Assembly (NCBI GenBank): GCA_965215265.1
Contig: OZ244048.1
Coordinates: 4,384,001 to 4,448,000, forward strand
Direction of reading: 5' to 3'
From: Candidatus Poribacteria bacterium
GTDB taxonomy: Bacteria > Poribacteria > WGA-4E > WGA-3G
DNA length: 64,000 nucleotides
Made by a program: the position numbers and the translations under genes. Position 1 is the stretch's first letter. Each line of letters begins with the position of its first letter. Below the pieces are notes generated by a model that ran no database searches, had not been told where the DNA came from, and saw only the letters and a list, made by a program, of their open reading frames with translations. Shown here piece after piece: positions 16,491 through 52,700 of the stretch.

Positions 16491-16595
16491 TTGCGAGAAA
16501 AGTGATTGAAGAATCATAACCTAGTGAGGTTCAGACGAGATTTACACACGAGTTATCAAAACATAGACGTTGATGGTACGGAGATATACAAAAAA
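16491..16595 (+). repeat. ~87-bp dispersed repeat, copy with parent-gene tail (ARKVIEES*)
   Basis: gaagaatcataacctagtgagg...cgagatttacacacg...ggagatatacaaaaaa. Confidence 0.9.
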
Positions 16596-16647
16596 CCTTC
16601 AAAGCAGCAGTCTGGTAGGCGAGATATATCAGGTACCGACGGGGTGC

Positions 16648-19578
16648 CTATTCGTTGTTTAACTTTGGATTCATTTGGCTTGGCCCGTTATTTTGCCAAT
16701 TGTCTGCCTTCTCTTTTAGTTTTTCCATATCGTCAGGATTCTTAATATCGACGATATGCGGGGTAATGATGATAACAATCTCCGCATCTTCAATAACCTT
16801 TTCCGTATTCTTAAAGAACCTGCCAATCCAGGGGATATCGCCTAAAATCGGAAGTTTATTTTCGACCTCTTTCTGTTTTTTACGAATGATGCCGCCGACA
16901 ACCAGCTGTTGTCCGTCTTTAACATCAATATAGACACTGATTGAATTGTCATCCGTTATAGGTGCGTTGAAGTCAGTAAATTCTATGAAGTTACTGGCAC
17001 TGATATTTTCGATATCGAGGCCGATAGTACGTTTTTCATCTTCGCCAGCTTGCGATTTAGCGATATAAGGTGTGAGTGAGATGTTAATCCCGACCGGTGG
17101 GTCGATGAAATCATAATTGAAGAGAGGCTGCGAGATGCCTTCCCTTAAGATGCTATTGGTATCTACGCTCTGGAGGTAAGGTATACGTCTACCGCTGCTC
17201 CATGTTGCGTTCCAGCTGTCGCGTGTCAAGAGTGAGGGTGTCGAAAGTGTCTTTACCTTATTCTCCCGGATCAGCGTGTGGAGCAGTGCCATATACTCTT
17301 TCGTTGCCAAACTGAGGTTAAATCCAGAAATCTCCCCATCCAGTCCTAATTGGCTATCCAGTTCTCCAACAAGAGGATTGCCGGGTTGAGCCGCGATGCC
17401 GAAAATCCGGTTTTCTTGGGCTGCCAATTCAATACCGAGTTTCGTTGTTTCGTCAAGTGTGACTTCAAGAATTTGTATATCGATCCAGACTTGCCCGCGT
17501 ACAAAGTCTAACTTTTTAATCAGTGCCTTGACATCCGGAAGGTAGCGTTGTAGGGTTGTGACGATGAGCGAATTGGTATCCGTTTCAGCATAAACGGTAA
17601 CCTTCCCGCGCAAGGAATTAATATCGTTTTGCTCTAATCTGCCTCCTGTAGCAAAGAACCGGGTGAAACTGAAACCGCGATTTTCGCTTGATGTTCCTTC
17701 CCAAACTTGGTCAAGTAACTGAGCGAGCTGTTCTGCATTGCCGTATTCAAGCCGGATTGTTTCTGTTATCTCTTTCTGTCCTTCCGGTGTCGGTACATCC
17801 ATTGATGCGATGAATTCAGAAATTAGGTCGAAATTACGTTGGGTTGCGGTTGACACGATAACTGCGTTGAGGGTAGGATAAGGTTCCGCTGTGACATTGC
17901 CTGCTAGTGAACCTTGTGTCTGATTGCGTTGCCGTTCTGCGAGAAAGAAAAAGAAGTTTCTCGAATTTCCTGAGCTGCCTTGGTAGACATTGTTAATCAC
18001 ATTTGCTACGTTTTCGGCGTCGGCGTATTTGAGTTTGTACATGCGGGTGCCCCATTCCTGATTAGGCATATTGACATCAAGTCTTTTGATGAGCGTATCA
18101 ATGGTTTCAAAATTCTGTGAAGCCGTAGAGATAAGTAGTGCGTTAAGTCGTGTATCTGCGACGATATGGACTTCGCCTTGCACCCCGAAGCCGCCATCTT
18201 CAGTGGGTCTCCGTTCTCTGCGCTCCCACCAAGGCCGGTCTCTATCGGCTCCAGCACTACCGCCTTCAAACAGATCTTGTAGGTCAGTTGATAGGGTTTC
18301 AGCATTGGCGAATTGTAGGAAATAGAGTTTAATCTCTTCTTGCGTCTGTTCCTGATCTAATTCGTTGATAACCTTTTCAATGATAGGAAAATTGCGCGGG
18401 TCGGAAGAGACAACGACAACATTTAACCGGTCATCATATGAGATGTTAACAGTCCCTACAATTCCTTGGAATTCGGAACTAGTGAGTCCGCGCTCCCGTC
18501 GATAGGCGCTTAGTTTGGCACGATCCCACGGATCTAGGCGTCGTCCCCGTCCTGTATTTTCTTCTCCAACGATGACTTCTTCAAGTGTTGAGGCAACATC
18601 TTCGGCGACAGCGTACTTGAGACGGAATACGCGAATCTCTGCTTGCAGATTGGGGGCAATGTCAAGTTTACGGATGAGTTCGCGGATGTAGACGAGATTG
18701 GTTTCGGATGCTTTGACGACGAGTGCATTAGAATTTTCATCTGCATAGACTTTGATGATGCCTTCAAGCATTTCAAAGTCTTCGCCTTGTTGAATAGTTT
18801 CCTTGGCTCGCGTTGGATCGCCGGCCCGTTTACTGCCAGTTGTTTTTCCTTCTTTATCTTCTTGTTCGAAGACCTGTGTGAGGGTTTGCGCAAGTGATGT
18901 CGCATTTGCGTGGGCTAAGGTTATAATCGCAATTTGTAAGGGGTATTGTTCGCCCTCATCGGCAATTTGTAAGATCTCCACAATCCGACGAATGTTTGAG
19001 GCCACATCGGTGATGACAAGCGAATTGGTGGCAGCATCAGCAAAGATAATCGCTTGTTTATTTAATAGCGGACGTAGTAAGTCGACTTGTGCGGGGGCAA
19101 CAGCATTCTCAAGTTGCACAATGTAAGTCTGGATTTCGTCTGTTTGTTCGACCTGTTCAGGATGGGGGAGGATATGCTTCACAGGGACTTTCATCACAGT
19201 CGCCTTTTCAAAAGTTGTGATGAGTAGCGTGTTATCGGTGTGGATTAACGTGAGATTATATTGGGCGAGCACAGTTTTGATTTTTTCTATTACCTCATCA
19301 AGTGTAACGTTTCTGAGATTAATGAGAGAGAATCTTTTATTTCGGATATCTTCTTCGCTCGCGATGATAGTGAGGTCTGTTTCTCGTGAGAGCCATTCTA
19401 AGAGGCCGTTAAGTTCCTGCCCCGTGAAGTTAAAGTCAAAACGGATAGCACGTCCTTCTTCATCAGTTTCAGCGACACGCATAGATGCTTGTTGCGGGTT
19501 CTGGGCAGGTGACTCAATAAGTGCACCGAACAGCAATCCTATAGAGACAAGTAAAAGAAATGAAAGTCGAACTTTCAT
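16648..19578 (-). CDS. gspD: Type II secretion secretin with expanded N-domains
   Basis: Signal peptide, N0-like domain, six Secretin_N-like repeats, QVWIDIQILEV, LPILGDIPWIGRFFK, IIITPHIV; GAGGAGG RBS before ATG 19578. Confidence 0.92.
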   Translation of the reverse strand: MKVRLSFLLLVSIGLLFGALIESPAQNPQQASMRVAETDEEGRAIRFDFNFTGQELNGLLEWLSRETDLTIIASEEDIRNKRFSLINLRNVTLDEVIEKIKTVLAQYNLTLIHTDNTLLITTFEKATVMKVPVKHILPHPEQVEQTDEIQTYIVQLENAVAPAQVDLLRPLLNKQAIIFADAATNSLVITDVASNIRRIVEILQIADEGEQYPLQIAIITLAHANATSLAQTLTQVFEQEDKEGKTTGSKRAGDPTRAKETIQQGEDFEMLEGIIKVYADENSNALVVKASETNLVYIRELIRKLDIAPNLQAEIRVFRLKYAVAEDVASTLEEVIVGEENTGRGRRLDPWDRAKLSAYRRERGLTSSEFQGIVGTVNISYDDRLNVVVVSSDPRNFPIIEKVINELDQEQTQEEIKLYFLQFANAETLSTDLQDLFEGGSAGADRDRPWWERRERRPTEDGGFGVQGEVHIVADTRLNALLISTASQNFETIDTLIKRLDVNMPNQEWGTRMYKLKYADAENVANVINNVYQGSSGNSRNFFFFLAERQRNQTQGSLAGNVTAEPYPTLNAVIVSTATQRNFDLISEFIASMDVPTPEGQKEITETIRLEYGNAEQLAQLLDQVWEGTSSENRGFSFTRFFATGGRLEQNDINSLRGKVTVYAETDTNSLIVTTLQRYLPDVKALIKKLDFVRGQVWIDIQILEVTLDETTKLGIELAAQENRIFGIAAQPGNPLVGELDSQLGLDGEISGFNLSLATKEYMALLHTLIRENKVKTLSTPSLLTRDSWNATWSSGRRIPYLQSVDTNSILREGISQPLFNYDFIDPPVGINISLTPYIAKSQAGEDEKRTIGLDIENISASNFIEFTDFNAPITDDNSISVYIDVKDGQQLVVGGIIRKKQKEVENKLPILGDIPWIGRFFKNTEKVIEDAEIVIIITPHIVDIKNPDDMEKLKEKADNWQNNGPSQMNPKLNNE

Positions 19579-19733
19579 AGAGATATTCCTCCTCAATTTT
19601 TTTTGATAGCGTTCAATGGTGATATCCACAACTTAAATCCGACCTTCAATGGCACTGCCGACTCTTCCCTGCTTGCAAGGCTAAAGTCGGCAAAAGCCAC
19701 TTTTCAGCAATCATTTGTTAAACGGAGTAGAGA

Positions 19734-20963
19734 TTAAAAAATTTGCGCAATCATAACGAGATCGACATTTAGGTTCAATTGATCTCTGTCCGCGGCCCTA
19801 CCTGCAGGCCGTTCGCGTTCTTCATTAGGACGCGTGTTCGACTGTTTATCCACAGTAATTCTTAGATCCTTGGCTGACAACCACTTCGTGTTAGTTTCAA
19901 TCAGGTGGTTTAAATTAACCAATTTTTCCATGCTGGTTTTGAACTTCATTTCAATAATGTAGTTATCAAACTGATACGTCGAGGGTGCCAAATCCAATTG
20001 CCTCAAAAGTGCTGTCCGTTGTTCCTGAATTTGTCCAACGTAATCGATGAGTGCGACAATGAATTCCTCTGCTGGTAGGGTCTCCGAAGTCAATGCCCCT
20101 TGTGTACGCAGCGATTGCGTGAGTACGTCTAGCAGTTTACTATTCGCTCTGAATTGAATTTCAACATAGGTGGGCTTCGCCCCGATGCCGAAAATGCCGG
20201 GGGTAGCAGGAGATTGGTGTTCATAAATCTGTGCTTCAAGGAAGCCGGGCCGGAAATTCGATGCCCCCAACAACTCTTGCGAAATCATTGAGAGAATAAA
20301 GTCTGCGAGTTCTATCCGCGTCTGTATAGGTATAACTTCCGGTAGTGACGCAAATTCCCGCTGTTTAATTGTCGTAGCGATTTTTTTGCTACTGTCGATG
20401 TTCTCTGTTTTTCCTTTTTCCGGGGGTTTATCTTCGCCCAGCCATGCGTTCATCAATTTTGAGAACGTGTCATCTTCAGTTTCTTGTTCCGCTTCCGCTT
20501 CTAGACTCTTTTTCTCTGCTTCCAAGTGTTTCATGTACAGATAAAGCACCAGATTCTGACGCGCCGGTGTGCCGAGTTTAACTGTCTGTTTGCTGGGTGA
20601 AGGTTTCGTCCGGAGTTGGTAATTTTGCTCAACCCCGGCGCGCTTTATCAATTCGTCAACGCGCTTTCTGATAACTGTCTCAGGATGTTCTTGATGAAAA
20701 ATGGTAAGCGGATCTGGTGTATCTTTTGACGATGCTAACCCGGTATCTTTATAAATTTCCCTTTCAATAGGCTTTAGGATTTCGGCTGCATGAACTAAAT
20801 TTTCTGCATTCGCTAAGTTTTTCTGTTTAGCATCTATGTTTTGGTTAGCAAACAGTTCGTAGAAGGCGGGGCCCCCTTGCAGCACAAGTACAATGAAGAG
20901 CACAATGCCTAAAATTCCAAGTAATATTCGGGCCTGAGGGGTTAATTCAAAATTAAATTCCAT
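19734..20963 (-). CDS. Membrane-anchored T2SS-associated protein (GspM/PilO-like position)
   Basis: N-terminal TM helix, coiled segments, C-terminal ferredoxin-like alpha/beta pattern; lies between the pilM-like gene and gspD. Confidence 0.6.
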   Translation of the reverse strand: MEFNFELTPQARILLGILGIVLFIVLVLQGGPAFYELFANQNIDAKQKNLANAENLVHAAEILKPIEREIYKDTGLASSKDTPDPLTIFHQEHPETVIRKRVDELIKRAGVEQNYQLRTKPSPSKQTVKLGTPARQNLVLYLYMKHLEAEKKSLEAEAEQETEDDTFSKLMNAWLGEDKPPEKGKTENIDSSKKIATTIKQREFASLPEVIPIQTRIELADFILSMISQELLGASNFRPGFLEAQIYEHQSPATPGIFGIGAKPTYVEIQFRANSKLLDVLTQSLRTQGALTSETLPAEEFIVALIDYVGQIQEQRTALLRQLDLAPSTYQFDNYIIEMKFKTSMEKLVNLNHLIETNTKWLSAKDLRITVDKQSNTRPNEERERPAGRAADRDQLNLNVDLVMIAQIF

Positions 20964-21220
20964 TTTTTTGTATATTTCAGCCCAATAAAGGCTGCTGCTA
21001 TTTACAACCCTGTGAAAATCTCGCTAGAGCCGCTTTATGCTATGCCTAAGGAATCTCCGATTTTTTGTATATGTTAGCCCAATAAAGGCTGCTGCTATTT
21101 ACAACCCTGTGAAAATCTCGCTAGAGCCGCTTTATGCTATGCCTAAGGAATTTCAGACGAGATTTACACACGATTAAACAAAATCATAAGCGTTGACGGT
21201 ACGGAGATATACAAAAAAAA
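20964..21220. repeat. Composite of three ~87-bp-family copies: two minus (20964-21044, 21061-21141) and one plus (21142-21220)
   Basis: 97-bp direct duplication plus a divergent plus-strand copy; ends TTTTTTGTATAT ... ATATACAAAAAA. Confidence 0.9.
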
Positions 21221-21222
21221 GA

Positions 21223-23151
21223 CTAACGATGCTTTAATTCTGGTTTTACAGACTCTTTTTTTTGCGGTGTGGTTTCGGATTGTTTTTCAGTATCCTCAGA
21301 ATTGTCGGTTGCTGAGATTTTTTCTTCAGGTCCGTTTTCATCCGAAGTTTCCGCGTCCGGAGAAGTATCCTCAGAATTCTGTTCTTCAAGCGTTTCAACA
21401 TCTGGCGGATGGATTTCAATTTCTGCTTCCGGTATTTGCCGTTCAGGCATCGGGTGACGTTTTTTAGCGAGCGTTTCAGGTGCTGAAGTGCTGAGTTTAC
21501 AATGCACTTGGACCCGGAAAATCTGTTTTCTATTCTCTGTCATTGCCGAAACTTCCCCGAGTTCAATACTCGTGAACACGTTAGAACGGTTGAGAGTGCT
21601 GAACAAAGCATTAATTGCCTGATGGGAAGCGGCCTCCAAATTAAAGGTAATCTGTGCTTTAGCAGGTTCATCCAAATTGCTGATGTTGAAATGGGTCCAT
21701 GCGATCTGAGTCCGATCTTTAAACATTTCGCTCAGGGCTTTTAAAATATCTAGTGGCGAAATGCGGTGTGTTAACAGATTCGTGAGTGCCAATTCGCGGG
21801 TGATTTGTGTCTTAGCCTGATTCATCAACGGTGTGATTTGAGCAGTGTGTGCGTTTAACATTTCTGCTCTATGCTGCTGCATTTGCTGTAAGGTGACAGC
21901 CACAAAAATAAGTCCGGCTATGGCTGTCCCACCCCACGCGCTTGTGAGCACAAGTTGACGTTTCCGGTTCGCTTGCGTATGGGTTGCTTCCACCTCTTTG
22001 GGTAAAAGCGAGACGCGTGTTGCAGGGTTCAGTGCATTGAGTGCAATGCCTAATGTGACTGCGAGGGTATCGCCCCATTCATCAAATACTTGTTGTGTCC
22101 GAGGAGCTATCATCGCAATTTCTGCTCGGTTATGAATTGCGATAGGGAGTGTCATTCCCACCTTCAGTGCCTCAACCGGATTCCAAAGGTGCGTTGGAAT
22201 ATTCAGTGTCTCTTCACAAACTTGGGTGAGTTCAAGCAGTCGTGCGCCTCCGCCGCATAACCAGAGTTCTGTGTTTCCTTCCGGTAAAGCCGCGGATTCA
22301 TATCTGCGTCTCGCTTCAGCTGCCGGTTGATTTCCCGTTTCGCGGAGTGCGGCGGCAATGGAACGTCGTAATTCACTGATAAATCGGGTTGTCCAAGCAG
22401 TTGCGGGTTCTTCACGTGCAGAAATTGTCCGCTTTTCCTGCTCTGCAGTTTCAAATTCAACGTTCAGTGCTGCCATCACACTCTCTGTCAAATGATTTCC
22501 GCCGGTCAAGAAACTCCGTGAAAACCGCAGCGAATTGCCCTGCATGAAACAGAAATCAGTCAGTTCGGCACCGATATCAACAATAATTCTATTTTGTAGG
22601 CTATTTTCCGGTGTAGAGGTAATACGTGCGGTTTCTGCAATTGCTACCATTGAAGGAACGATCGCTGATGGTGAAATTCGATGCTTTTCGAGCGGTGAGA
22701 TATATTCCTGAACAGTTGCACGGCGAGTTGAAATGAGTTCTACGGAGGTTGATTCGGCTGTCCGCCGGACATCATGGTAAGTAAAAATTGCATCTTCCAC
22801 CCGGAAAGGCAGCTCCGTTTCTGCAGCCATTGCAACCAAATTCTCAAGTTGGTCATCCGATGCATCCGGCAGGTTCGGTAAACGTTTCGTACTCACCAAG
22901 AATCGCGGGAGTGCAATAGTTACCTGCATCTTACTTCTGTTGAAAATGGCTCGCACCCCGGTCGGAATGGGATTACCTAGCGATTTCCAGATTTCGTCTA
23001 TTGCTGTGGTTACTGTTTGCTTATTCTCATTTTTAGGACGCTCTACAACGATTGCATTAACAAAATGCAGAGATGTAGCTGTTTGTTCGAGTTGCACGAC
23101 TTTAGTCGTTTTTGTGCCGATATCTATTGCGACGACCTGATTTTTTGCCAT
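21223..23151 (-). CDS. PilM/GspL-like actin-fold protein fused to TM and PilN-like domain
   Basis: VAIDIGT, IVDIGA, GGNHLT, LCGGGA actin-like motifs; SLLP then TM helix; acidic tail. Confidence 0.8.
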   Translation of the reverse strand: MAKNQVVAIDIGTKTTKVVQLEQTATSLHFVNAIVVERPKNENKQTVTTAIDEIWKSLGNPIPTGVRAIFNRSKMQVTIALPRFLVSTKRLPNLPDASDDQLENLVAMAAETELPFRVEDAIFTYHDVRRTAESTSVELISTRRATVQEYISPLEKHRISPSAIVPSMVAIAETARITSTPENSLQNRIIVDIGAELTDFCFMQGNSLRFSRSFLTGGNHLTESVMAALNVEFETAEQEKRTISAREEPATAWTTRFISELRRSIAAALRETGNQPAAEARRRYESAALPEGNTELWLCGGGARLLELTQVCEETLNIPTHLWNPVEALKVGMTLPIAIHNRAEIAMIAPRTQQVFDEWGDTLAVTLGIALNALNPATRVSLLPKEVEATHTQANRKRQLVLTSAWGGTAIAGLIFVAVTLQQMQQHRAEMLNAHTAQITPLMNQAKTQITRELALTNLLTHRISPLDILKALSEMFKDRTQIAWTHFNISNLDEPAKAQITFNLEAASHQAINALFSTLNRSNVFTSIELGEVSAMTENRKQIFRVQVHCKLSTSAPETLAKKRHPMPERQIPEAEIEIHPPDVETLEEQNSEDTSPDAETSDENGPEEKISATDNSEDTEKQSETTPQKKESVKPELKHR

Positions 23152-23192
23152 TTTTCTTGTTTCAACTCCCGAAATTGTGTTATGTTTTTCGA

Positions 23193-23419
23193 TTTTTTGT
23201 ATCTTTCAGCCCCATCAAGGGTTATGTATTGTTAAATCGTGTGTAAATCTCGTCGGAGCCTCACTAGGTTATGATTCCTCAAGAACTTTACGCGCTAACT
23301 CTTCAATCTCCGCTGGGTCGCCACCCTGATCTCGAACAGTTTTCTCCCAATCAATACTCACCCGATGAGCCGCTGGCGGGGCCCAAAAGAATTGAACCCA
23401 GTTTAGTAAGGAAATTTTG
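23193..23419 (-). repeat. ~87-bp repeat copy with the longest parent-gene remnant
   Basis: Core 23193-23277; upstream open frame ...NWVQFFWAPPAAHRVSIDWEKTVRDQGGDPAEIEELARKVLEES*. Confidence 0.85.
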
Positions 23420-24955
23420 CTAATACTGCCGCCAATATGGGATTGCCACAGTTTCCCCAGTCCGATTGATAATACCGATACACCGGGCGATGACTCTATT
23501 ATTTGCGTCAACGCCAGCGGATTCAATGCGAAAAGCGTGTGAGCGATAGGTTACCCAATCCACAATGTTCCTAAACGTCTCAAAATCAATTTCCTCAATT
23601 TCTAAAAGTTGGGATATTGCGGTGAAAGGGTTTCCTTTGATTTCTTCTGCTGTTAAATTTTGTATCTCCGGGGTGTTAGGTACTTCTTCTTCTCTCCGGG
23701 CAACAATCGCTTGTGCTTTTTCGCCATCCATTCCCGGCAAGAGTGCTAAGGTTTCCGGCGGTGCCGTATTTATATTGATTAACCCGCTAAGCGTCTCCTC
23801 ATCTTTTATGGTAACTTTATCAGCGATGCTGACAAATTCGTCTTGCGTTAACATTTTGACCTCTTTTAGCGCATCAATGTTCTGGAAATTCCCTTGTGAG
23901 TTGCGGTGTGCCACAATACGTTGGGCAATTCCCTCATCAATACCTTCAAGCGATTGAAGTGTCTCTATATCTGCAGTATTGATATTAATCTGTCCGTTTT
24001 CTGCCTGCTGCTCCTTTTCTTGGTTATCTTGTTCTTCGTTACCTTGTGTGGTAAGTCGAGCTCGGACGGAATTGAAGAGTTCATCGGAGACGGCTTGGAT
24101 GTCTACTAATGCTGCTATCTGGTCAAATTCGCGTTGTTGGATGAACGACTCCGCCTCATCTGGCGTGAAAACGGGCCCGTTATTTCCCTGAATTTGGGTT
24201 AGCTGCGAAGATTCTGCCGTATTCACGTTGACGCGCTCCTGCCCTTCTGCATCTGTATTTGTATCAATTGAATAGACTGTTGCTAAATGCACTAATCCGA
24301 TTCCACTTGTGGGGATATTTTCCTGTCTCGTGCCAGTTTCTGTTACTGGTATTGCAGTCTCTTCCTGCTGTGTAGTCGATTGGACGGGTGCCGACGAATT
24401 TTGTTGTACCCCGTAAAGCAGCTCTGCTGACATGTCATCAACGCCTGCAAGCGCACGAACGGTGCGGTATGGCTGCCCTTCCACAATGTTGTTCGCTAAT
24501 TCCTGCGTAAAGGCATCATCCGGGTTTGCCCCTATGTGTACCAACAAATTAAGGATGAGCGAAACGTCAGCCGTATTGAGGTTAATCTTTGATGCTTCGT
24601 CTATAATGTTAACGCTATAGGTTAAAAGGTTTCCGCCTTGAATACCGTCTTCAATTTGTCCCTCAATCGGTTCACCCCAATTTTCACCAAGGGCATCAAA
24701 AGGTATCTGATCGTCGCGTAGTAGAGCGAGTGCCCATTCAAAACCGGCTCTGGCAGCATAGTGAAATTTTTCGCGATGCAAGAAATTTCGCTGTGCACGC
24801 TGCTCCAAGTGAATCGAATAGAGCAGTTGTGTCGCGAGGATGGAGAGGAGTGTCAAGATCCAGAGCGTTGAAATGAGAGAGAGACCTTCCTCGTTGCTGC
24901 AGCTGCATGCCACTTTATTTTTTTTAAATATGGGCACGTATGCAGGATTTTCCAC
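23420..24955 (-). CDS. gspK: T2SS minor pseudopilin GspK-like protein with several helix-hairpin-helix repeats
   Basis: G|LSLISTLWIL leader, DEASKINLNTA, repeated ININTA...L..L.GI motifs. Confidence 0.85.
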   Translation of the reverse strand: MENPAYVPIFKKNKVACSCSNEEGLSLISTLWILTLLSILATQLLYSIHLEQRAQRNFLHREKFHYAARAGFEWALALLRDDQIPFDALGENWGEPIEGQIEDGIQGGNLLTYSVNIIDEASKINLNTADVSLILNLLVHIGANPDDAFTQELANNIVEGQPYRTVRALAGVDDMSAELLYGVQQNSSAPVQSTTQQEETAIPVTETGTRQENIPTSGIGLVHLATVYSIDTNTDAEGQERVNVNTAESSQLTQIQGNNGPVFTPDEAESFIQQREFDQIAALVDIQAVSDELFNSVRARLTTQGNEEQDNQEKEQQAENGQININTADIETLQSLEGIDEGIAQRIVAHRNSQGNFQNIDALKEVKMLTQDEFVSIADKVTIKDEETLSGLININTAPPETLALLPGMDGEKAQAIVARREEEVPNTPEIQNLTAEEIKGNPFTAISQLLEIEEIDFETFRNIVDWVTYRSHAFRIESAGVDANNRVIARCIGIINRTGETVAIPYWRQY

Positions 24956-24965
24956 TGTTTTTTCC

Positions 24966-25053
24966 TTTTTTTGTATATAGGAGCCCCGTAACGCTTTATG
25001 TTTTGTTAATGACTGTGTAAATCTCGTCGGAGGTTTTGATGTTTAGATTCAAT
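24966..25053 (-). repeat. ~87-bp dispersed repeat copy (gspJ-gspK spacer)
   Basis: Nearly identical to 25933-26019. Confidence 0.9.
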
Positions 25054-25093
25054 ATCCAGTTTGGATCGAGCTCGGTACTCCGCCTAATTCTGA

Positions 25094-26041
25094 TTAATTT
25101 GCAGCTGCGCCTGGCAAATGAACCATTGTTGATTGCGTCATCATTCCCGGCTGTGTTACGTTTTCGCCTTCTTGCAGGGTTGATGCTGTCTGCGGGCTTG
25201 AGAGATCTGCGTCTTCCCCTTGCACTGAGATTAGAATTTGAACTGCAAGCGGCGTACTTTCAGTTTCGTCCCATGAATCATACCAAGTTTCCTCGCCATC
25301 AAAGTACTTCAAATCGAAACTGACAATTCCAGAAATGAGGGCTGCGAATTGAGAAGAGATCGGTTCGCCATTTTCGTCGGTTTCAGGTGCATCTCCGGTC
25401 TCTAATAAATTTCCAATAACCAGCTGCGGGTCAAGTGCAGTGGTTGTAACCCGATAGAGGACCAGTGCCTCAGTTTGCTGCTCAGAACTCTGTTCAGTTC
25501 GGGTTGGAAGTGCTGTTTCGCCCAGCGGTATTTCATTTCCGAGGAAATAGGCAACGCGCTGTACATCACTAACGAGTGGAGACATAGAGATACTTTGGGT
25601 TCCAACGCTTTCTGCAGCCAATTGGAATAAAAAGGGATCTGGGTCTGTGTTTACTAACGTGACGAAGCTAAGTATGTCCCGGTCTCCGGATTCCATCGGC
25701 ATATCTTGTGTGTATAAAGCAAACTCCGGTTCTTCAGGCGATACCTGTATGTGTCGTAAATCGTTCACGAGTTTGTCCAACGCGACGCGACTTCTTTGGG
25801 CGGCTAACGTCTTTGTAGCAGTTCTATGGTAGACATCTACCGCTGTCTTAAAGACAAAATACGAAGTGCCTCCAAGAATAACCAGAATGCTAACAGCTAC
25901 AAGCATTTCAATAAGTGTGAAGCCCCTATCAGTTTTTTGTATATAGGAGCCCCGTAACGCTTTATGTTTTGTTAATAACTGTGTAAATCTCGTCGGAGGT
26001 TTTTGATGTTTAGATTCAATTTTTTGTAAATGCACTGTCAA
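25094..26041 (-). CDS. gspJ: T2SS minor pseudopilin GspJ-like
   Basis: RG|FTLIEMLVAV N-methylation motif; C-terminal W.DSW....PLAVQI; leader lengthened by the repeat insertion. Confidence 0.85.
   Translation of the reverse strand: MTVHLQKIESKHQKPPTRFTQLLTKHKALRGSYIQKTDRGFTLIEMLVAVSILVILGGTSYFVFKTAVDVYHRTATKTLAAQRSRVALDKLVNDLRHIQVSPEEPEFALYTQDMPMESGDRDILSFVTLVNTDPDPFLFQLAAESVGTQSISMSPLVSDVQRVAYFLGNEIPLGETALPTRTEQSSEQQTEALVLYRVTTTALDPQLVIGNLLETGDAPETDENGEPISSQFAALISGIVSFDLKYFDGEETWYDSWDETESTPLAVQILISVQGEDADLSSPQTASTLQEGENVTQPGMMTQSTMVHLPGAAAN
25933..26019 (-). mobile_element. 87-bp repeat inserted in frame in the gspJ leader
   Basis: TTTTTTGTA at 25933-25941 and 26020-26028, exactly 87 bp apart; removal restores MTVHLQKTDRG|F. 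Confidence 0.75.
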
Positions 26042-26053
26042 CCCCTGCTTCCC

Positions 26054-26479
26054 CTATCGTCCCTGCTGTTTTTGCCTATCTGCAATAAAGGTATGCATGG
26101 ACATCGAACGTGCCCCGCCGAGGTGTTGCCATGTGACGGTGACTTGAACTCTTACGACTGCTGCAACCTCTTCAGATTGTACCTCTTCAACGACAGACTG
26201 CCATTGGTACCGAGAATTGTCGCCAAATTCCCCGCTATCTTCACCGACTTCAGGGAAACCCTCCATTTCAATCTCAGCCATCCGGTATTTGATGAGGTAG
26301 AGTGCTGTGGTGCGATCGTCTGAAAGTCCCTGAGTACGGGTAGTTGACGAGAAAACTTGCGAAAGCGCAGGCAGAACCACCGATAAAATCGCCAAAGTTA
26401 CCAGAATTTCAACCAATGTAAAGCCTTGGTTACTTGTTTCATGTCGAGCCAATTCAAATGGTAGCTGATATTGTCTCAT
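26054..26479 (-). CDS. gspI: T2SS minor pseudopilin GspI-like
   Basis: QG|FTLVEILVTLAI; YQWQ...V...VRVQVTVTW. Confidence 0.85.
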   Translation of the reverse strand: MRQYQLPFELARHETSNQGFTLVEILVTLAILSVVLPALSQVFSSTTRTQGLSDDRTTALYLIKYRMAEIEMEGFPEVGEDSGEFGDNSRYQWQSVVEEVQSEEVAAVVRVQVTVTWQHLGGARSMSMHTFIADRQKQQGR

Positions 26480-26481
26480 GG

Positions 26482-26602
26482 TTTTTTGTATATCTCCTTA
26501 CCATCAACGTCTATGTAATGATAGCTCGTGTGTAAATCTCGTCTCAGCCGTTCTAGGTTATGATTCCTCGATAACTTTTCGCGCAAGCTCTTCAATCTCG
26601 AG
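26482..26602 (-). repeat. ~87-bp repeat copy with parent-gene tail (EIEELARKVIEES*)
   Basis: Ends 2 nt before the gspI ATG; weak similarity to the 23.3-kb remnant continues toward 26629. Confidence 0.9.
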
Positions 26603-26629
26603 GGTTACAACCCCGGAAGCACTTGAAGA

Positions 26630-27421
26630 TTATTCGCGAGTTTCTGCTCGAAATCCCAGCAGTTCAATATCTTCAGGCGTGAGCTGTCGAACGTGAACAC
26701 GCCCATTTGCTAACTCAACGGTGATCGACATCATCTGATTTTGCTGGTTCCGAAGATAGATCAACGTTTCCTCGGAAGTGCCGGTTGGCGAAAAATAGAC
26801 GTACTCAATCCCATCCTCTATCTGTGCAGTTCGCCCATTGTGGTTTGTTACCATGCTGGCGAATGTAACGTTCTGTTCTAAGGTTTGTGGTATTCCTAAG
26901 ATGTCACTTGTACGAGACAGTGCTTGTTGTCCACTTGCCGTAGCGGCTGCGCCTTGACGCTGCAGAGTGCCTGCTTGTGCTGTTATCACCGTAGAATTTT
27001 CTGCTTCGACGATTGAGGTCAATGGGTCCCTCGGGTTAAACGTTTCACTAGAGGCGAGCCAATAAAGTTCCCTGTCCAAATCAATGACAACAAGGTAGGG
27101 TATTCGCTCTGTAATTGCCATATCCCGTGCAAAGGTGAGCAGGTCTCGGAGGGTATAGGCAGATGCCTTCAACCGGCGCGTGGTTGCAAACCCCTTCAGC
27201 GCAGGCATGGCTATGGAGGACAGTACGGCGATAATTGCCATGACGAGCAGTAGCTCCATGATAGTAAAACCGAGCTGGCGAACGGAGGTCTGGTTACGAA
27301 CCGTGCCTCCGTTTTTATAGGAACCGTCAGTTGTTTGCGGCGGCTGTATCCCAATTGGTAATATCCGCGTCAAATTCTTCGCCTCCGACCTTACCGTCTT
27401 TTCCGAGTGAGTAGAGGTCAT
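26630..27421 (-). CDS. gspH: T2SS minor pseudopilin GspH/FimT-like (true start uncertain, overlaps gspG end)
   Basis: G|FTIMELLLVMAII, ARDMAI, YFSPTGT. Confidence 0.82.
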   Translation of the reverse strand: MTSTHSEKTVRSEAKNLTRILPIGIQPPQTTDGSYKNGGTVRNQTSVRQLGFTIMELLLVMAIIAVLSSIAMPALKGFATTRRLKASAYTLRDLLTFARDMAITERIPYLVVIDLDRELYWLASSETFNPRDPLTSIVEAENSTVITAQAGTLQRQGAAATASGQQALSRTSDILGIPQTLEQNVTFASMVTNHNGRTAQIEDGIEYVYFSPTGTSEETLIYLRNQQNQMMSITVELANGRVHVRQLTPEDIELLGFRAETRE

Positions 27422-27779
27422 AATCGTACCCAGGGCGCGTTCCGGGGTATCTATAAATGTAACTGTTGTTCCATGGATCTAGAAAAGTCTCAGCTTTAAG
27501 GTAGGGTCCGTTCCAAGTCTCGGGCGTTGGATTGGGTGCCTGCCATAAAGCAGCGAGGCCTTGTTCAGTGGTTGGGTAGGTCCCGACTTCAATCGCATAC
27601 AGCTCTAAAGCTGTTTTGATGTTTCCAATTTCAATTTTAGCTTTCGAGACACGTGCCTTTTGCGGCGCATTTACTATCTTAGGTGCGATGAACGTTGCCA
27701 AAATGCCTAAGATAACTATAACAATTGTCAATTCAATCAAGGTTAATCCTGATTGGTCTGTTCTGAGTTGCGTTAGCAT
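27327..27779 (-). CDS. gspG: T2SS major pseudopilin
   Basis: G|LTLIELTIV, YPTTEQGLAAL, WNGPYL, DPWNNSYIY, YSLGKDG, DITNW; start set at ATG 27779. Confidence 0.95.
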   Translation of the reverse strand: MLTQLRTDQSGLTLIELTIVIVILGILATFIAPKIVNAPQKARVSKAKIEIGNIKTALELYAIEVGTYPTTEQGLAALWQAPNPTPETWNGPYLKAETFLDPWNNSYIYRYPGTRPGYDYDLYSLGKDGKVGGEEFDADITNWDTAAANN

Positions 27780-27856
27780 GTAAATCACCTTTTTTCTGGG
27801 GGAGATCGACGCAACGGCGATGTGCACGTTGTGTCGCTATGTCCCTTTTAGGATAA

Positions 27857-27937
27857 TTCGTGTATTTCAGCCCGATAACGCTCTATGTTGTGTCAATGAA
27901 TGACTGTGTAAATCTCGTCGGAGATTTTCTAGGTTTT
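27857..27937 (-). repeat. ~87-bp dispersed repeat copy (gspF-gspG spacer), degenerate
   Basis: aaacctagaaaatctccgacgagatttacacag...gggctgaaatacacgaa with a 4-bp internal duplication. Confidence 0.85.
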
Positions 27938-28007
27938 AACGGTAATGGTCCTTTATTCTTTTACGGCGGTTTAGCCACATTTATTGTTATTAGAAAGACT
28001 GCGTTTT

Positions 28008-29231
28008 TTACCCGGTGAGTAATTGGTTTGCCTCAAAGATCGGCAGAATCATTGCGACAGCGATAAACCCGATGATTAAACCCATCAATAGGATTACCAG
28101 GGGACCGATAGACCCGGTTAGCCGATCGAGGCTCTTCTTAATTTCTACATCGTAGTATTCAGAAAGTTTGCTGAGCATGCTGGCCGGTTCGCCCGATTCC
28201 TCGCCGACTGCTATCATTTGTGTGACAAACTCCGGAAAATCGCTATTTCTTTCAAGTTCCCGGGCGAGTGTTGAGCCCTGCTCAACAGCTTTTTCTGCCT
28301 CAGCAACCGCATTACTGTAAACTTTATTTCCGATTGTATCTTTTGCAACTTGGAGTGCAGGCAGCATTCGCACACCGTTCTGCAAAAGGGTTGTCATCGT
28401 GCGGGTGAATCGAACAATGGCGAAGGTACTAAAAATCGAACCGACGAGGGGCAGCCGTATTTTCAGTCTGTCAAACCAGACTTGTCCTGGCTCTGTTTGG
28501 AGTACTTGCCGTATTCCAACGGCCCCGATGATAATGATAATTCCTACTATCCACCAATATTGCGTAACGACATCTGTTGTGTTAATCAGCACTTGTGTTG
28601 GAAGCGGGAGTGCTACGCCCATATCTTCAAACATCGCAGTGAATTGTGGAACAACAACAATCATGAGAATGGTAACTGCGGTGATACTTAGCGTTAAGAG
28701 AATAGCAGGATAGAAGAGAGCCGAAATAACATCATTTTTCAGAATGCGCTGACGTTCGGCAAATCCTGCCAATCGTTCAAGCACTAATCCAAGCACGCCG
28801 CCACTTTCACCGGCTTTAACCATATTGATATAGAGATTTGAGAAGACTTTAGGGTGTTGGTTCAATGCATCGTTAAACGTCGCACCATGCTCAACATCGT
28901 ATTTGACTTGTGAAACGATTCGATGGAGTGCTGGGCTCTGGATTTGGCCTAGAGTGACCTCTAACGCTCTCGGCAGTGCGACATGGGCGTTTAGCAACGT
29001 TGAAAGTTGATAAGTAAAGAATTCAACATCGGCCGATTTAACTTTGCCTCTGCCAATTTGAAGCCAACGCATGAAGCTGCTTTGCGTTTCTTCAGCTTCT
29101 TCAGCAATTTGTGTAGGCCAATAGCCCATCTGCCTTAAGCGTGAGATAAGTTCCGCTTTTGAGTCGGCTTCCAATGTATTTTTTACGGTGTCCCCGCCGT
29201 GGGTGAGTGCTTCATATCGAAAGATAGGCAT
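28008..29231 (-). CDS. gspF: T2SS inner membrane platform protein
   Basis: MVKAGESGG, ALFYP, MIAVGEESG, AMILPIF. Confidence 0.95.
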   Translation of the reverse strand: MPIFRYEALTHGGDTVKNTLEADSKAELISRLRQMGYWPTQIAEEAEETQSSFMRWLQIGRGKVKSADVEFFTYQLSTLLNAHVALPRALEVTLGQIQSPALHRIVSQVKYDVEHGATFNDALNQHPKVFSNLYINMVKAGESGGVLGLVLERLAGFAERQRILKNDVISALFYPAILLTLSITAVTILMIVVVPQFTAMFEDMGVALPLPTQVLINTTDVVTQYWWIVGIIIIIGAVGIRQVLQTEPGQVWFDRLKIRLPLVGSIFSTFAIVRFTRTMTTLLQNGVRMLPALQVAKDTIGNKVYSNAVAEAEKAVEQGSTLARELERNSDFPEFVTQMIAVGEESGEPASMLSKLSEYYDVEIKKSLDRLTGSIGPLVILLMGLIIGFIAVAMILPIFEANQLLTG

Positions 29232-29270
29232 CTATGTTTTCTCGCGCTGTAGCTTGTAGGCAGCTGCGTT

Positions 29271-29618
29271 CTTTTATATATCTCCGTACCATTAACGCTT
29301 CTGCTTTGATGGCTCGTGTATAAATCTCGTCGGAGGCTCCTGATGTTTAGATTCAATCTTTTATATATCTCCGTACCATTAACGCTTCTGCTTTGATGGC
29401 TCGTGTGTAAATCTCGTCGGAGGCTCCTGATGTTTAGATTCAATCTTTTATATATCTCCGTACCATCAACGCTTCTGCTTTGATGGCTCGTGTATAAATC
29501 TCGTCGGAGGCTCCTGATGTTTAGATTCAATCTTTTATATATCTTCGTACCATCAACGCTTCTACTTTGATGGCTCGTGTATAAATCTCGTCGGAGGCTC
29601 CTGATGTTTAGATTCAAT
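29271..29618 (-). repeat. Tandem array of four 87-bp units (gspE-gspF spacer)
   Basis: Units start at 29271, 29358, 29445 and 29532 and differ by only a few substitutions. Confidence 0.95.
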
Positions 29619-29622
29619 AATC

Positions 29623-37190: not shown

Positions 37191-37191
37191 G

Positions 37192-38641: not shown

Positions 38642-38647
38642 GCGGGT

Positions 38648-39346: not shown

Positions 39347-39363
39347 TCAGCAGAATTGCTAAC

Positions 39364-40146: not shown

Positions 40147-40271
40147 AATTTTCCTCCATTGAATAGTTATTATTTAACAGAATACCATAAACACTTTTCT
40201 GTGTCAAGTGTATCGTTTCGAACAAGTGCGTGGCATATAAGCGAAACGATAGCGTCGAGATTCTGCTGGGG

Positions 40272-42616: not shown

Positions 42617-42942
42617 GAGGTGCCTCCCAATTTGTCCGTTCAATTCGGGTGAAGGTTGAAAACTTATCTTTCAAGTTTTTTACATTATAGCACGGTTAGG
42701 AAATTGTTGCGTTTCTGATAGTTACAAAATTCTTTGACTCTATTTACGGGGTGTGCTATCTTAAATGATAAAAGATGTCAACTAAACCCGGGTTCATTTA
42801 GTTTTGGACATTTTCGTGGATTTGCAGCGCCCGTCTACGGTGGTGTATTGCGATTTTAGTGTGCATTCTTAAGGGCTAACTAAATCGTTCTATCTGAAAC
42901 GTTAGTCTATAGCTTAGGGTAGAAAAAAAGCGGGATAGTATT

Positions 42943-44073: not shown

Positions 44074-44115
44074 ACGTTCGTAGCACGTGGTAAGGCTTTT
44101 GAGGCCTCTCTCATC

Positions 44116-45303
44116 TTATTCGCTGCGATGTATAAAAGAAGCGATGCGGCGATGCATGAAGAGCTCTATTACGATGGCGATGCCTATTGCCACCGCACAG
44201 AGGAGGTACGGACTTTGAACACCTAATGGAGAATCCGCTGCGATACCGCCGAAAAAGGGACCGAGCAAGATACCGACACCGAGCGTCGCTTCATGCCAAC
44301 CGCTTTTGTTGCCCTTATCCTTTTGCCGGTCTAAACCGTAGTAGAGGCTGCTGAAATAAGTGAAGGCGGCAGAGATGCCGATAACGCCAAATGCACATGC
44401 CCAGAGCGGTGTGCGTTGTATCTGCCAGAGTCCAATGAAGCTCAGAATTGCGAGTATCTGCACCGTTAAGAGGGGTGCTAGCCGGTAGTGCCATCGGGTT
44501 GAGTATCTGGTGCCGAGTAGCAGAAATACCGCTGTTTGTAAGGTTCCGAGTGTTAGCATCAAGTTTCCGAACGTCTGTGTGGGAATGCCCATTTCTAATG
44601 TTAGTTTTGGGGTGATTTGCCGGAGGATGCCGAGTGCAAACCACGATGCGAAATTGGCACATCGTGCAAGGTTGAGATGGGTCGCGCGCACCGCGGGTGA
44701 GGGCGAGTCTGGCTTGAGTCGTTCGGATTCAGGTAGCGGTGTCGGCACGGAAGGTTCAGGTTTATTGAAAAAGAACGTTGCGAACGTCAGTGCGCTGAAA
44801 GCGGCGGCAAGGTAGAACGGCGTGAAGGGGTTGGCATCGTGATAGAGGTAGCCTGATGCTGTTGGCCCCAAGGTCATCCCGATGCTCCAGAAGAGATTAA
44901 AAAACATCACTCGCTGTAGCAGTATGTCTTCTGCCTCGCGTTCAGCCAACCACGCTTCGTAAGCTGGCCAAAAGAGTGCCATACTGATGCCGACAGTGGG
45001 GAAAATGAGGAGTAGATGAAAGGCGTTACGGCAAAAAGGGAGTCCGATGGAGGCGGCCCCGAGTAGCAGACATGCGGCGTAAAGGACGTGCCGCCGGCCT
45101 AGCCGGTCGGAGAGCCGCCCGAACGGGATTGCGAGAAAGACAAAAAAAGCCGTGGTTAGCGCCATTAACCCGCCGAGAAACGTTGAGGAGAGCCCCAGGT
45201 AACTGGTATAAAAAGCGGTGTTCGTCAACAAGCCACCGAACGCGAAATCTATCAGGAGTGCGGGCAGATAGACAGTCAGCAATTGACTGAGTTGAGGAAT
45301 CAT
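44116..45303 (-). CDS. MFS transporter
   Basis: GRLSDRLGRR motif A, about 12 hydrophobic segments. Confidence 0.92.
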   Translation of the reverse strand: MIPQLSQLLTVYLPALLIDFAFGGLLTNTAFYTSYLGLSSTFLGGLMALTTAFFVFLAIPFGRLSDRLGRRHVLYAACLLLGAASIGLPFCRNAFHLLLIFPTVGISMALFWPAYEAWLAEREAEDILLQRVMFFNLFWSIGMTLGPTASGYLYHDANPFTPFYLAAAFSALTFATFFFNKPEPSVPTPLPESERLKPDSPSPAVRATHLNLARCANFASWFALGILRQITPKLTLEMGIPTQTFGNLMLTLGTLQTAVFLLLGTRYSTRWHYRLAPLLTVQILAILSFIGLWQIQRTPLWACAFGVIGISAAFTYFSSLYYGLDRQKDKGNKSGWHEATLGVGILLGPFFGGIAADSPLGVQSPYLLCAVAIGIAIVIELFMHRRIASFIHRSE

Positions 45304-45380
45304 AACCTAAGGAATCTCCGACGAGATTTACACACGAGTTGTCAATATCTAAGCGTTGATGGTACGGAGATATACGAAAA
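45292..45380 (+). repeat. ~87-bp dispersed repeat copy overlapping the MFS start codon
   Basis: gaggaatcataacctaaggaatctccgacgagatttacac...ggagatatacgaaaa; nearly identical to 52615-52700. Confidence 0.9.
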
Positions 45381-45497
45381 TTCGGTGCATGAAGGGCGTT
45401 CCGTAACGGGCGCGGTCCGGAAATTCTGTCGTTCCGGAGCCGCTTACATCGCTTTTTTTGTTTGCTCTGGTAGCGTTGTGCATCTGGACGGCAGTGG

Positions 45498-46490: not shown

Positions 46491-46613
46491 TTTTAGGTGT
46501 AACCTTTCGGTTGAGAGTATTTAGAATTTTGCTGTGCTTGCGTGTGTAAAATCGGTTCCAAATTCTGCACGACATCGCTCCGTCAAGAAAAATCTATGCA
46601 GTGTTTTCGTGTT

Positions 46614-46802
46614 TCAACGTGTTTTGTTGGTGTGCATTCGCATGGTAATTTTGACGATGCCTCTAATCATAATGGCTGTGCCGGTTGCCAGGAATAGCGG
46701 CAACCCCCATGTCCACTTAAAGAAATAGTAGGCAATAAAAGTGGCAACCATCAAGAGAATGGCGATATTGAGAAGTGTTCTGTTCTGATACCAATTTTTC
46801 AT
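46614..46802 (-). CDS. Small two-TM membrane protein
   Basis: 62 aa ORF with two hydrophobic segments and basic ends. Confidence 0.5.
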   Translation of the reverse strand: MKNWYQNRTLLNIAILLMVATFIAYYFFKWTWGLPLFLATGTAIMIRGIVKITMRMHTNKTR

Positions 46803-46949
46803 AATTTCTTAACTGTATCTCTACGTTGTAACCGGATTTCAGATTTAGAGTTTTGCTGTCGTCCTGTGCTTGCACACTGTCCTTAGAAATGTTAGCATAT
46901 ATACACTTGAATGTCAATTGGTTCGATTGGCTTATGCAACTTCTGATAA

Positions 46950-47036
46950 TTTTTTTGTATACTGGAGCCCAATAAAGGCTGCTGCAATGGACACCCTAGC
47001 ACAAAACTCGTCGGAGGGTTCTGATGTTTTGATTCA
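46950..47036 (-). repeat. ~87-bp dispersed repeat copy (divergent subfamily)
   Basis: gaatcaaaacatcagaaccctccgacgagttttgt...gcagcagcctttattgggctccagtatacaaaaaa. Confidence 0.85.
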
Positions 47037-47187
47037 TAGCATAGAAAACCTCCGATCTATAGATGGCAGGTATAAGGTTATCTTGTCTCATGGACAGACA
47101 AAGTGGCGAGATAGGTAATATCGCGAGTCCTCGAGGGCTCGCTTTGCTACCTTTTACTCGCCACTCACTGGGAATACCTAACCTGCC

Positions 47188-47248
47188 ACGAGATTTACAC
47201 ACGAGCTATCATTACATAGACGTTGATGGTACGGAGATATACGAAAAA
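47188..47248 (+). repeat. 5'-truncated ~87-bp repeat copy
   Basis: Nearly identical to the 26482-26542 copy. Confidence 0.9.
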
Positions 47249-47264
47249 GGAATCCGCTAAAGTG

Positions 47265-48602: not shown

Positions 48603-48606
48603 CGAG

Positions 48607-52485: not shown

Positions 52486-52583
52486 AAGATGTCCTCTATG
52501 AGTTCGGTTTGGGAGCGGAGTTATTCTGTCGGTATGACGACGAGTTCATTGGCATCAGCCAATTCCTGTAGAATTTCATTCCG

Positions 52584-52700
52584 GTCTTCGAGGAACTTGC
52601 GAAAAAAGTGATTGAAGAATCATAACCTAAGTCATCTCCGACGAGATTTACACGCGAGTTGTCAATACCTAAGCGTTGATGGTACGGAGATATACGAAAA
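52584..52700 (+). repeat. ~87-bp repeat copy with parent-gene tail (VFEELAKKVIEES*)
   Basis: Same core; coding-like upstream extension. Confidence 0.9.

Follow-up and report, generated by a model that had tools for sequence, protein, structure and literature searches.

A mosaic intergenic repeat family in a Poribacteria genome, with the type II secretion operon as one of eight dense patches

BIME/REPIN repeats with RAYT are known, as far as the consulted sections of PMC3333891 and PMC3116915 describe them, as hundreds of intergenic copies, as inverted pairs at preferred spacings and as tandem and mosaic arrays with modules nested in modules, and their abundance is lineage-specific; all of these traits were found again in the family described here. 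The TnpA-REP protein cuts and rejoins single-stranded BIME DNA and was proposed as the source of mosaic and tandem units (PMC3333891, in the part consulted). CGTC-tagged REPs (Di Nocera 2013, PMC3733652, in part) consist of an unpaired tag, next to which come a stem of 8-9 bp that begins with AT, a loop of 4-5 nt and a CCA tail, and Rickettsia palindromic elements are named in the same excerpt. BOX elements of Streptococcus pneumoniae contain tandem units inside two terminal modules and were classed with MITEs (IS-like terminal repeats, folded RNA) (PMC3049150, in part). The ends of IS607 require GG termini together with several phased motifs (PMC6188088, in part).

A repeat of about 87 bp had been noticed in the window (the whole stretch of Poribacteria DNA that was analysed, 64,000 nucleotides) from its letters alone, and the 17 copies of this sequence-only reading were all recovered in place and strand (final model, E 3e-12 to 2e-20 or better). 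The counts of 13 copies in the type II secretion (T2SS) locus and of 11 of these 13 on the operon strand also held. The features, in coordinates of the window, are as follows.

16648..31377, minus strand: host T2SS-like operon (gspE-F-G-H-I-J-K, pilM-like gene, 409-aa gene, gspD)
16511..16596, plus strand: repeat arm behind gspD, 5' extension from ~16485
20963..21047, minus strand: repeat arm, tail touching the ATG of the 409-aa gene
21060..21144, minus strand: repeat arm, left half of a divergent pair with a 35-bp centre
21134..21218, plus strand: repeat arm, right half of the divergent pair
23192..23277, minus strand: repeat arm at the gspK/pilM-like junction, extension to ~23303
24967..25052, minus strand: repeat arm at the gspJ/gspK junction
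25933..26019, minus strand: repeat arm in frame within the gspJ prepilin leader, adding 26 codons
26481..26566, minus strand: repeat arm at the gspH/gspI junction, Shine-Dalgarno-like tail 2 bases before the ATG
27857..27937, minus strand: repeat arm at the gspF/gspG junction
29269..29617, minus strand: four tandem head-plus-unit arms, 87-bp period, at the gspE/gspF junction
45297..45381, plus strand: repeat arm 5' of an MFS transporter gene
46950..47036, minus strand: repeat arm
47180..47248, plus strand: 61-bp unit with a different head, which is the tag of a second hairpin family
52617..52701, plus strand: repeat arm 5' of an hsdM-like gene, extension from ~52590

Four copies (16491, 23193, 26482 and 52590) had in common an extension of about 25 bases on the 5' side of the head, and the copy at 24967 was 99% like the one at 25933 over 71 bp. 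The operon was intact and collinear in 15 relatives, with the repeat missing from those loci, and the claim that no gene is destroyed holds for the T2SS genes, as all ten proteins could be aligned for most of their length to their counterparts in the 15 relatives. The prepilin leader of gspJ was 26 codons longer than in the same-genus relative (G001). No Rfam match at E<=1 was obtained over window positions 16000-53000. The earlier statement was that the window holds no recognisable transposase for the repeat; one ORF (8492-9628) is called Transposase_31 by Pfam, but it does not adjoin a copy.

The 17 copies are part of a family of 878 arms at 415 loci, amounting to 1.35% of the genomic DNA, which was found with the model in the whole genome (G000); the same model gave 0 matches on the reversed genome. 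The arms are mostly intergenic (70 of the 878 lie mainly inside genes, by rough gene calls), and the mean pairwise identity is 64% with homologous interiors. In the T2SS operon 8 of 10 gene junctions were occupied, compared with 10% genome-wide, and shuffled placement reached this number in only 2 of 1000 trials. This is what would be expected of a T2SS-specific regulatory or RNA-processing element, or of a T2SS-targeted insertion. However, seven other ten-junction runs with unrelated gene sets, including the rpoBC and trp regions, were equally full or fuller (8-10 of 10), and 865 of the 878 arms lie outside the operon; no conserved fold, no Rfam match and no copy in the 15 orthologous operons were found. 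Eight patches are equally dense, and the T2SS operon is just one of these colonised patches; therefore the targeting that had been suggested fails, and a special T2SS role is not supported; this explanation is largely refuted and highly improbable. Neighbouring loci were <2 kb apart in 39% of cases, compared with 13% at random, and the best-matching partner lay within 20 kb in 10% compared with 2%, which lends modest support to the local hopping also suggested.

Each arm is composed of a head of ~26 bp and a 61-bp unit that starts at a fixed anchor, the near-invariant RCGAGATTT, and ends in an A-rich tail. The 87-bp unit of the sequence-only reading is seen as a tandem period at 29269..29617, but it is really head plus unit, and genome-wide a tandem period of 61 bp is more frequent (88 neighbour pairs at 60-62 bp vs 10 at 87-88 bp). 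The plan of a locus is (<-)n centre (->)m, with arms directed outward from a degenerate dyad and stacked in tandem. Adjacent arm pairs were head-to-head in 194 cases vs 26 tail-to-tail, centres of 35, 43, 50 or 51 bp were present in 106 of 157 divergent pairs, and 232 of the 415 loci were one-sided. Single arms were without terminal inverted repeat, and for them the reported lack of a palindrome stands; it does not for divergent loci, whose inverted arms are degenerate, the copies at 21060-21144 (minus) and 21134-21218 (plus) forming a single divergent pair whose centre is a degenerate palindrome of 35 bp. Partner arms were less complementary than shuffled partners, and none of 136 opposite-arm pairs within a locus had an identity of at least 90%. 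Units, heads and two unrelated hairpin modules were joined at the same few points, and these joints were sharp and common to unrelated modules. No excess of target duplications of 2-9 bp was seen at 112 two-tailed loci, and the clean empty sites were also without duplication. RNA folding of 120 arms was no better than that of shuffles (mean z -0.33 and -0.02); positions 14:34 and 15:33 covaried as pairs, with no longer helix and no folding signal.

The family works much like known small selfish intergenic repeats. As in BIME/REPIN, whose inverted doublets are often heterodimers, partner arms were unlike each other. In contrast to the BIME/REPIN units of the consulted sections (PMC3333891, PMC3116915), the Poribacteria unit has no 20-40(60)-bp palindrome and its arms are 61-87 bp long, its invariant part is a short anchor instead of a tagged stem-loop, and its arrays grow outward from the dyad. 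Unlike in REPs, no unpaired GTAG or CGTC tag stands directly before a 5-13-bp stem, and no RAYT gene, which in REPs is flanked by the repeat, was found in G000. CGTC-tagged REPs, in the part of PMC3733652 used, share with the family the CGTC (here on the anchor's bottom strand), the pairing of unlike units into heterodimers, copies inside genes and the lack of an associated transposase gene, but here CGTC lies opposite GACG in the partner arm, and a stem-loop of that kind does not come after it. BOX elements (PMC3049150, in part) are likewise modular composites whose internal tandem units vary in number, whereas the Poribacteria tandem units are outermost, without target duplication or strong fold. 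Poribacteria literature on repetitive or intergenic repeat elements contained nothing on this family at the level of titles and abstract openings.

Several other classes were tried. A MITE of the RUP, BOX or Correia type is disfavoured by the missing target-site duplication at the 112 two-tailed loci, and a CRISPR array by the homologous interiors, which leave no unique spacers. Against a DGR variable repeat, in which variation is confined to template adenines, A and T positions were both near-invariant on one strand, and the DGR-like reverse transcriptase (RT) locus had no adjacent arm. An integron cassette array (attC) is not supported, nor is a pure form of the recombination-site reading proposed earlier: the flanked genes are ordinary ones that keep their order in relatives, and the sole match to a tyrosine recombinase (phage integrase) carries an internal stop.

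Arms entered the gene junctions after the lineage had split from the nearest sampled relative. In G001, 83 of 85 mappable loci were empty, and 2 of 85 were occupied in both genomes, so that some copies are old. The 15 orthologous T2SS loci gave 0 significant matches to the repeat, and identical occupancy of relatives was not seen. With copies genome-wide, no Rfam match and empty sites in relatives, the earlier view of a dispersed, non-autonomous, lineage-specific inserted family was upheld. Matches to the anchor pattern numbered 312 in G000, 108 in G004 (another genus) and 5 in G001, and none of the remaining 173 of the 176 genomes had more than 3; the family has expanded separately in the genus of G004. 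In these three genomes the anchor and a unit length of 61-62 bp were kept and the interiors differed. About a dozen projected G004 copies fell near a G000 locus by informal count, close to the 10% base rate, and three synteny block ends lay near loci by eye, about as expected. In conspecific populations the repeat was present at all T2SS sites covered; present-day mobility, as had been implied, was not seen, the four conspecific data sets showing no empty allele. Of the 25 loci given by the all-species scan, 23 came from two records with Poribacteria in the title, and the remaining 2 fell in other bacteria, within coding sequence. Viral contigs gave 41 single matches to a 16-base pattern, with 0 extending into an arm. 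Metagenome contigs gave no GspK relative and no full-arm match with a pattern that recovers 4 window copies; close to identical records may be missing from that set, which makes this no proof of absence.

Within 100 bp of the next start codon, 113 arms were co-directional with the gene and 10 were not, and farther away the numbers were 26 and 29; this confinement of the bias points to selection. The tails touch start codons in the T2SS operon and a -35-like box of four paralogous genes. In-frame insertions were present in the gspJ leader and, by reading of the translations, in rpoC-, glyS-, tlyA- and gcvP-like genes. This in-frame insertion is like that of Rickettsia palindromic elements, although the Poribacteria arms are not long palindromes. 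Rickettsia palindromic elements are long palindromes and are known to insert in frame into working genes. No link between strand and local GC skew was seen, the skew being too broken to mark replication direction. It is unlikely that the arms are domesticated cis-elements, kept for ribosome-binding or A-rich upstream sequence or as phased chromosome-protein sites. The touching tails, the anchor and unit length kept in three genomes with diverged interiors and the presence in all covered conspecific samples would agree with such a role, but relatives run the same T2SS operon without arms, the orientation bias is gone beyond 100 bp, TTGAC after the tail is near background (13/625 vs 1.4%) and the copy number differs ~60-fold inside one genus.

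Six methyltransferase paralogues have the left arm in common and a different head or right arm, and since paralogous loci with common flanks carry different right arms or heads, modules have been exchanged in place. Locus 312 holds species-specific versions at the same site in G000 and G001, and at two sites (the tlyA-like gene and locus 391) a short host match to the arm is repeated on both sides. Multi-copy protein families adjoining loci showed two nominal excesses (5/9 and 6/14), which reflect co-duplication and fail under 60 comparisons. The swaps, locus 312, the flanking host matches and the failure of the enzyme searches described below to find a candidate in G000 would all suit an old low-copy repeat with no dedicated enzyme, for which host recombination, gene conversion and slippage via tail or anchor microhomology were the means of spread and homogenisation. 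Conversion alone, however, cannot make new loci at clean empty sites, the sharp joints are common to unrelated modules, and no general circular permutation of arms was found (8 same-strand loci flagged, 0 with the expected pattern); we regard this explanation as rather unlikely.

Enzyme searches covered the G000 genome, which is 95% complete. No Y1 transposase, tnpB or IS110 was found in it, and no match to a RAYT-like query in a search run without positive control; a Y2 search gave 0 matches, the control also being without match anywhere. One RT, which is DGR-like, and a resolvase adjoining one locus were present. Y1 enzymes need a hairpin, and single arms have none. Y1 transposases and tnpB were present in G001 and G004; G001 had 34 Y1 and 108 tnpB matches, yet few repeats. 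None of ten Y1 loci of G001, G002, G004 and G007 was flanked by the repeat; for the three of G004, one degenerate copy lay ~1 kb from one of them. A tnpB element stands beside one G001 copy, which may be chance given the 108 matches. An IS605-end origin of the nested hairpin module was rejected, its profile having no match to IS605 ends in 1.66 Mb of G001.

That the arms are miniature substrates of a serine transposase of the IS607 family, an enzyme that works without inverted repeats and leaves no target duplication, appears very unlikely. IS607 ends (PMC6188088, in part) resemble the arms in lacking terminal inverted repeats and target duplication and in a similar short motif at the anchor, but the arms have a single motif where IS607 ends have a phased array, they lack GG termini and they do not co-occur with the transposase. 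A broken tnpA with a recognisable left end is present in G000, and 12 matches were found in the expanded G004 and 0 in G001. One left-end variant equals the anchor at 10/11 bases (noticed after the fact), and a 29-end matrix scored the anchor site at >6 bits in 36% of arms vs 0.13% of background. Only the anchor position scores, however, and one good site by chance was estimated at ~1 in 5; the clean borders of G000 sites, read by eye, are not GG, and tnpA is present in 60 of 111 family genomes, with the anchor pattern matching just once each in G060, G063 and G122, which have 11-14 matches to tnpA. Of three sequence tests of an IS607 origin, two had a negative outcome, as did the test for co-occurrence.

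The family is probably best understood as a non-autonomous mosaic repeat of intergenic regions that inserts without target duplication and behaves as the BIME/REPIN class does, without belonging to it. It would have spread partly by short-range copying, filling one operon after another. Orientation may have been random at insertion and afterwards sorted by selection close to start codons; the A-rich, often GGAG-bearing tail would be the only part tolerated there. Unlike partner arms would avoid long perfect palindromes. Cutting and joining in trans on single-stranded DNA could have been done by an HUH nuclease (Y1, IS200/IS605 or RAYT-type) since lost from the genome, leaving the family largely frozen; this is the part of which we are least sure, and it is offered tentatively. 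Alternatively, the anchor could be the joint of a new site-specific assembly system of Poribacteria in which a non-RAYT, non-DDE enzyme adds, swaps and re-edits 61-bp modules at a non-hairpin site, the enzyme being either a recombinase of the host or an IS607 serine transposase that was borrowed; both forms of this proposal are doubtful. If it were true, such a system would have filled core operons twice, rewritten ribosome-binding regions and added peptides to essential proteins.

The family says nothing special about type II secretion. Essential operons were filled without breakage: arms at start codons stand tail-first, and the one in a leader that is cleaved off keeps the reading frame. 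Small mosaic repeats with no known mover are an open problem, with CGTC-tagged REPs as the printed example, and the Poribacteria family is a testable case of it: the joint is sharp and the centres come in discrete lengths, the family has undergone two separate expansions whose interiors differ, the sister genome offers empty sites, and swaps of modules can be read from paralogous loci.

The 17 repeat copies claimed by the sequence-only reading were all found in the window at the positions and on the strands reported, with 13 of the 17 confirmed in the type II secretion (T2SS) locus and 11 of those 13 on the operon strand. The window genes around the copies were assigned by Pfam as gspE, F, G, three prepilin-type genes, gspK, a pilM-like gene and a secretin gene. 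Eight of the ten gene junctions of the T2SS operon (16648..31377, minus strand) are occupied, a level reached in 2 of 1000 shuffles, but the T2SS enrichment or targeting proposed from this density was not borne out, since seven other non-overlapping runs hold 8, 9 or 10 of 10.

A profile iterated over the genome holding the window (G000), whose chromosome is a single 4.83-Mb contig (C1), detected 878 arms (head of about 26 bp plus 61-bp unit) in 415 loci of one or more adjacent arms, and none in the reversed-genome control; the arms total 65 kb, or 1.35% of the chromosome. According to our rough gene calls (3773 genes), on which the counts of junctions, starts and intragenic arms rest, a locus is present at 390 of 3773 gene junctions and 70 arms lie mostly within genes. 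By reading of translations, on which gene names outside the window are based throughout, in-frame arms or arm pieces are contained in rpoC-, glyS-, tlyA- and gcvP-like genes and in a 2068-aa protein:
G000:C1:1094470, 4245248, 4051844, 245328 and 1078015-1082530, in-frame arms or arm pieces
Other dense runs were recognised in the same way in the rpoBC region, the trp and ilv genes and a glycosyl/sulfotransferase cluster. Neighbouring loci are less than 2 kb apart in 39% of cases versus 13% (maximum 17%) over 500 random placements, and this excess, together with the seven other dense runs, shows that patchiness is real and general across G000. The family has no special tie to type II secretion, and the T2SS operon is one such patch among several.

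Where a one-sided locus separates two genes read in the same direction, it shares their orientation in 139 cases versus 39. When divided by distance to the next start codon (rough-caller starts), the ratio is 113 co-directional versus 10 opposite within 100 bp and 26 versus 29 beyond it; because the bias is confined to the shorter distance, insertion looks orientation-blind, with orientation sorted afterwards by selection, and the 11 co-directional copies of 13 in the T2SS locus are attributed to selection near starts in a tight operon. There, the tail of one arm directly adjoins an ATG, the tail of another carries a GGAG motif ahead of the gspI start, and the gspJ leader is lengthened by 26 codons through its copy. 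The prepilin leader is cleaved off by prepilin peptidase.

Ordinary coding repeats were also noted in the window, namely a 12-bp tandem run within a Transposase_31 (YhgA-like) gene (8675-8758) and 126-bp WD40 repeats (55123-56688). Among T2SS operons of relatives, that of G015 closes with two tandem secretin genes (L024:11872-17901), that of G012 carries an IS630-like element, by reading of translation, between gspF and gspG (L018:13263-12231), and L018 and L020 hold one or two additional genes between gspE and gspF.

The invariant part of the arm is the nine-base anchor RCGAGATTT, at which the 61-bp unit begins, ending in an A-rich tail, and ahead of which the head (3' end CTCNG) usually stands. 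Adjacent arms are head-to-head in 194 pairs versus tail-to-tail in 26; anchors are 35, 43, 50 or 51 bp apart in 106 of 157 divergent pairs, with a degenerate dyad between them, and further units follow on the outer side, with a period of 60-62 bp in 88 pairs and of 87-88 bp, where the head is included, in 10. All 625 complete arms are joined to the preceding module at the anchor, this module being the usual head in 473, the tail of another unit in 110, the tag of a second hairpin family in 26 and something else in 16. This second hairpin-plus-tag family (window 47160-47185; about 290 profile matches genome-wide, about a third beside arm loci) can thus provide its tag in place of the head. A third hairpin of 34-38 bp recurs at one fixed position within the unit (38 profile matches), for example:
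G000 C1:477205, 479008, 484682 and 4340988, 34-38-bp hairpin module
Hairpins similar to it were seen in IS607 ends of G004, a genome of another genus.

Unit interiors are mosaic, with 439 distinct among 485 of equal length and only partial linkage between blocks; pairwise identity averages 64%, with a nearest-neighbour median of 95%. Single arms folded no better than shuffles and had no match in Rfam. Partner arms were less complementary than shuffled partners in the 35-, 50- and 51-bp classes (p 0.005, <0.001 and 0.003, respectively; 43-bp class, p 0.095), as expected either under an asymmetric element or under selection against long palindromes.

Fifteen orthologous T2SS loci, including that of the same-genus genome G001, gave no significant repeat match (two partial ones at E 0.3-0.4). 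In the 1.66 of 4.0 Mb of G001 compared, 83 of the 85 loci mappable on both flanks were empty and 2 occupied; a further 65 had one flank only, flanks on different stretches or no collinearity. The copy at one site occupied in both genomes has a G001-type interior. Clean sites (gspJ, loci 371, 130 and 160) are plain insertions without duplication, and no duplication excess was present at 112 two-tailed loci. Gene order between G000 and G001 is kept in blocks of roughly 5-30 kb (L113-L132), and GC skew changes sign many times along G000.

Among 176 phylum genomes, a 14-base anchor pattern occurred 312 times in G000, 108 in G004, 5 in G001 and at most 3 in any other, and 23 of 25 loci in an all-species scan fell in Poribacteria-titled records. 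Anchor, head and unit length are common to the copies of the three genomes, while the G004 and G001 copies each have interiors of their own. On these grounds the family has a long low-copy history and has expanded in two genomes, and fragmented assemblies may hide others. A single degenerate arm stands behind a clpP-like gene in another genus (L029 of G012, L031 of G108); the G000 site matching the G012 copy is empty. Four conspecific data sets, each from a different study, were compared on contigs, which lose rare variants; contigs enter the repeat at 7 of 7 loci examined in the best-covered set and wherever cover exists in the other three; among the joints listed, the four-copy array left out, none skips a copy.

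For the mobilising enzyme, no Y1 transposase, tnpB or IS110 was found in G000, and the RAYT-like G004 protein has no match there. Its one phage-integrase match is interrupted by a stop, and its reverse transcriptase sits in a DGR-like gene pair (G000:C1:1419492-1420944, L100; small Avd-like gene, then 352-aa reverse transcriptase), just downstream of an FGE-sulfatase-type ORF; FGE-sulfatase-domain genes with repeated DNA (window 10985-11920 and 57382-60186) could be remote targets. Y1 genes are present in G001 and G004 (tnpB matches, 108 and 66, respectively), and of the 10 Y1 loci inspected in G001, G002, G004 and G007 none is flanked by arms. In G001, a two-unit repeat at a site occupied in G000 too has an IS200/IS605-type element with tnpB alone immediately head-ward of it (L099:2324-3553). 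An IS607 origin was considered because of a broken serine transposase gene (tnpA) in G000 (G000:C1:4098721-4099306, L102), whose left end, made up of phased 10-bp motifs, is recognisable, many elements in G004 and an anchor-like end motif; just one site scores, borders are without GG, and no repeat expansion accompanies the 11-14 tnpA matches that some genomes hold. With this lead failed, a BIME-like route was chosen, in which arms might tentatively be supposed, at somewhat under an even chance, to have been moved in trans by a single-strand cut-and-join enzyme since lost. E. coli products of such an enzyme match the mosaic, tandem and nested forms (PMC3333891).

The repeat works like BIME/REPIN (PMC3333891, PMC3116915) but differs from them in hairpin, tag and RAYT; it lacks the duplication of MITEs (BOX, PMC3049150) and the phased motifs and GG termini of IS607 elements (PMC6188088). 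CGTC-tagged REPs were compared from PMC3733652. No description of such a repeat in Poribacteria was found by a title- and abstract-level literature search, and it is an uncatalogued small selfish repeat of known kind.

For 10% of arms, versus 2% at random, the best-matching partner is no more than 20 kb away, most partners being distant, and the gspJ copy is 99% like the one between gspJ and gspK; short-range copying thus contributes to the filling of operons. A locus lies 3' of the stop codon in six paralogous DNA methyltransferase genes, with a near-identical left arm, a mostly common right flank and a different head, right arm or unit number. Modules would appear from these loci to be swapped without moving, with joints at the anchor and the centre; such exchange would account for both the mosaicism and the species-specific interiors at old sites.
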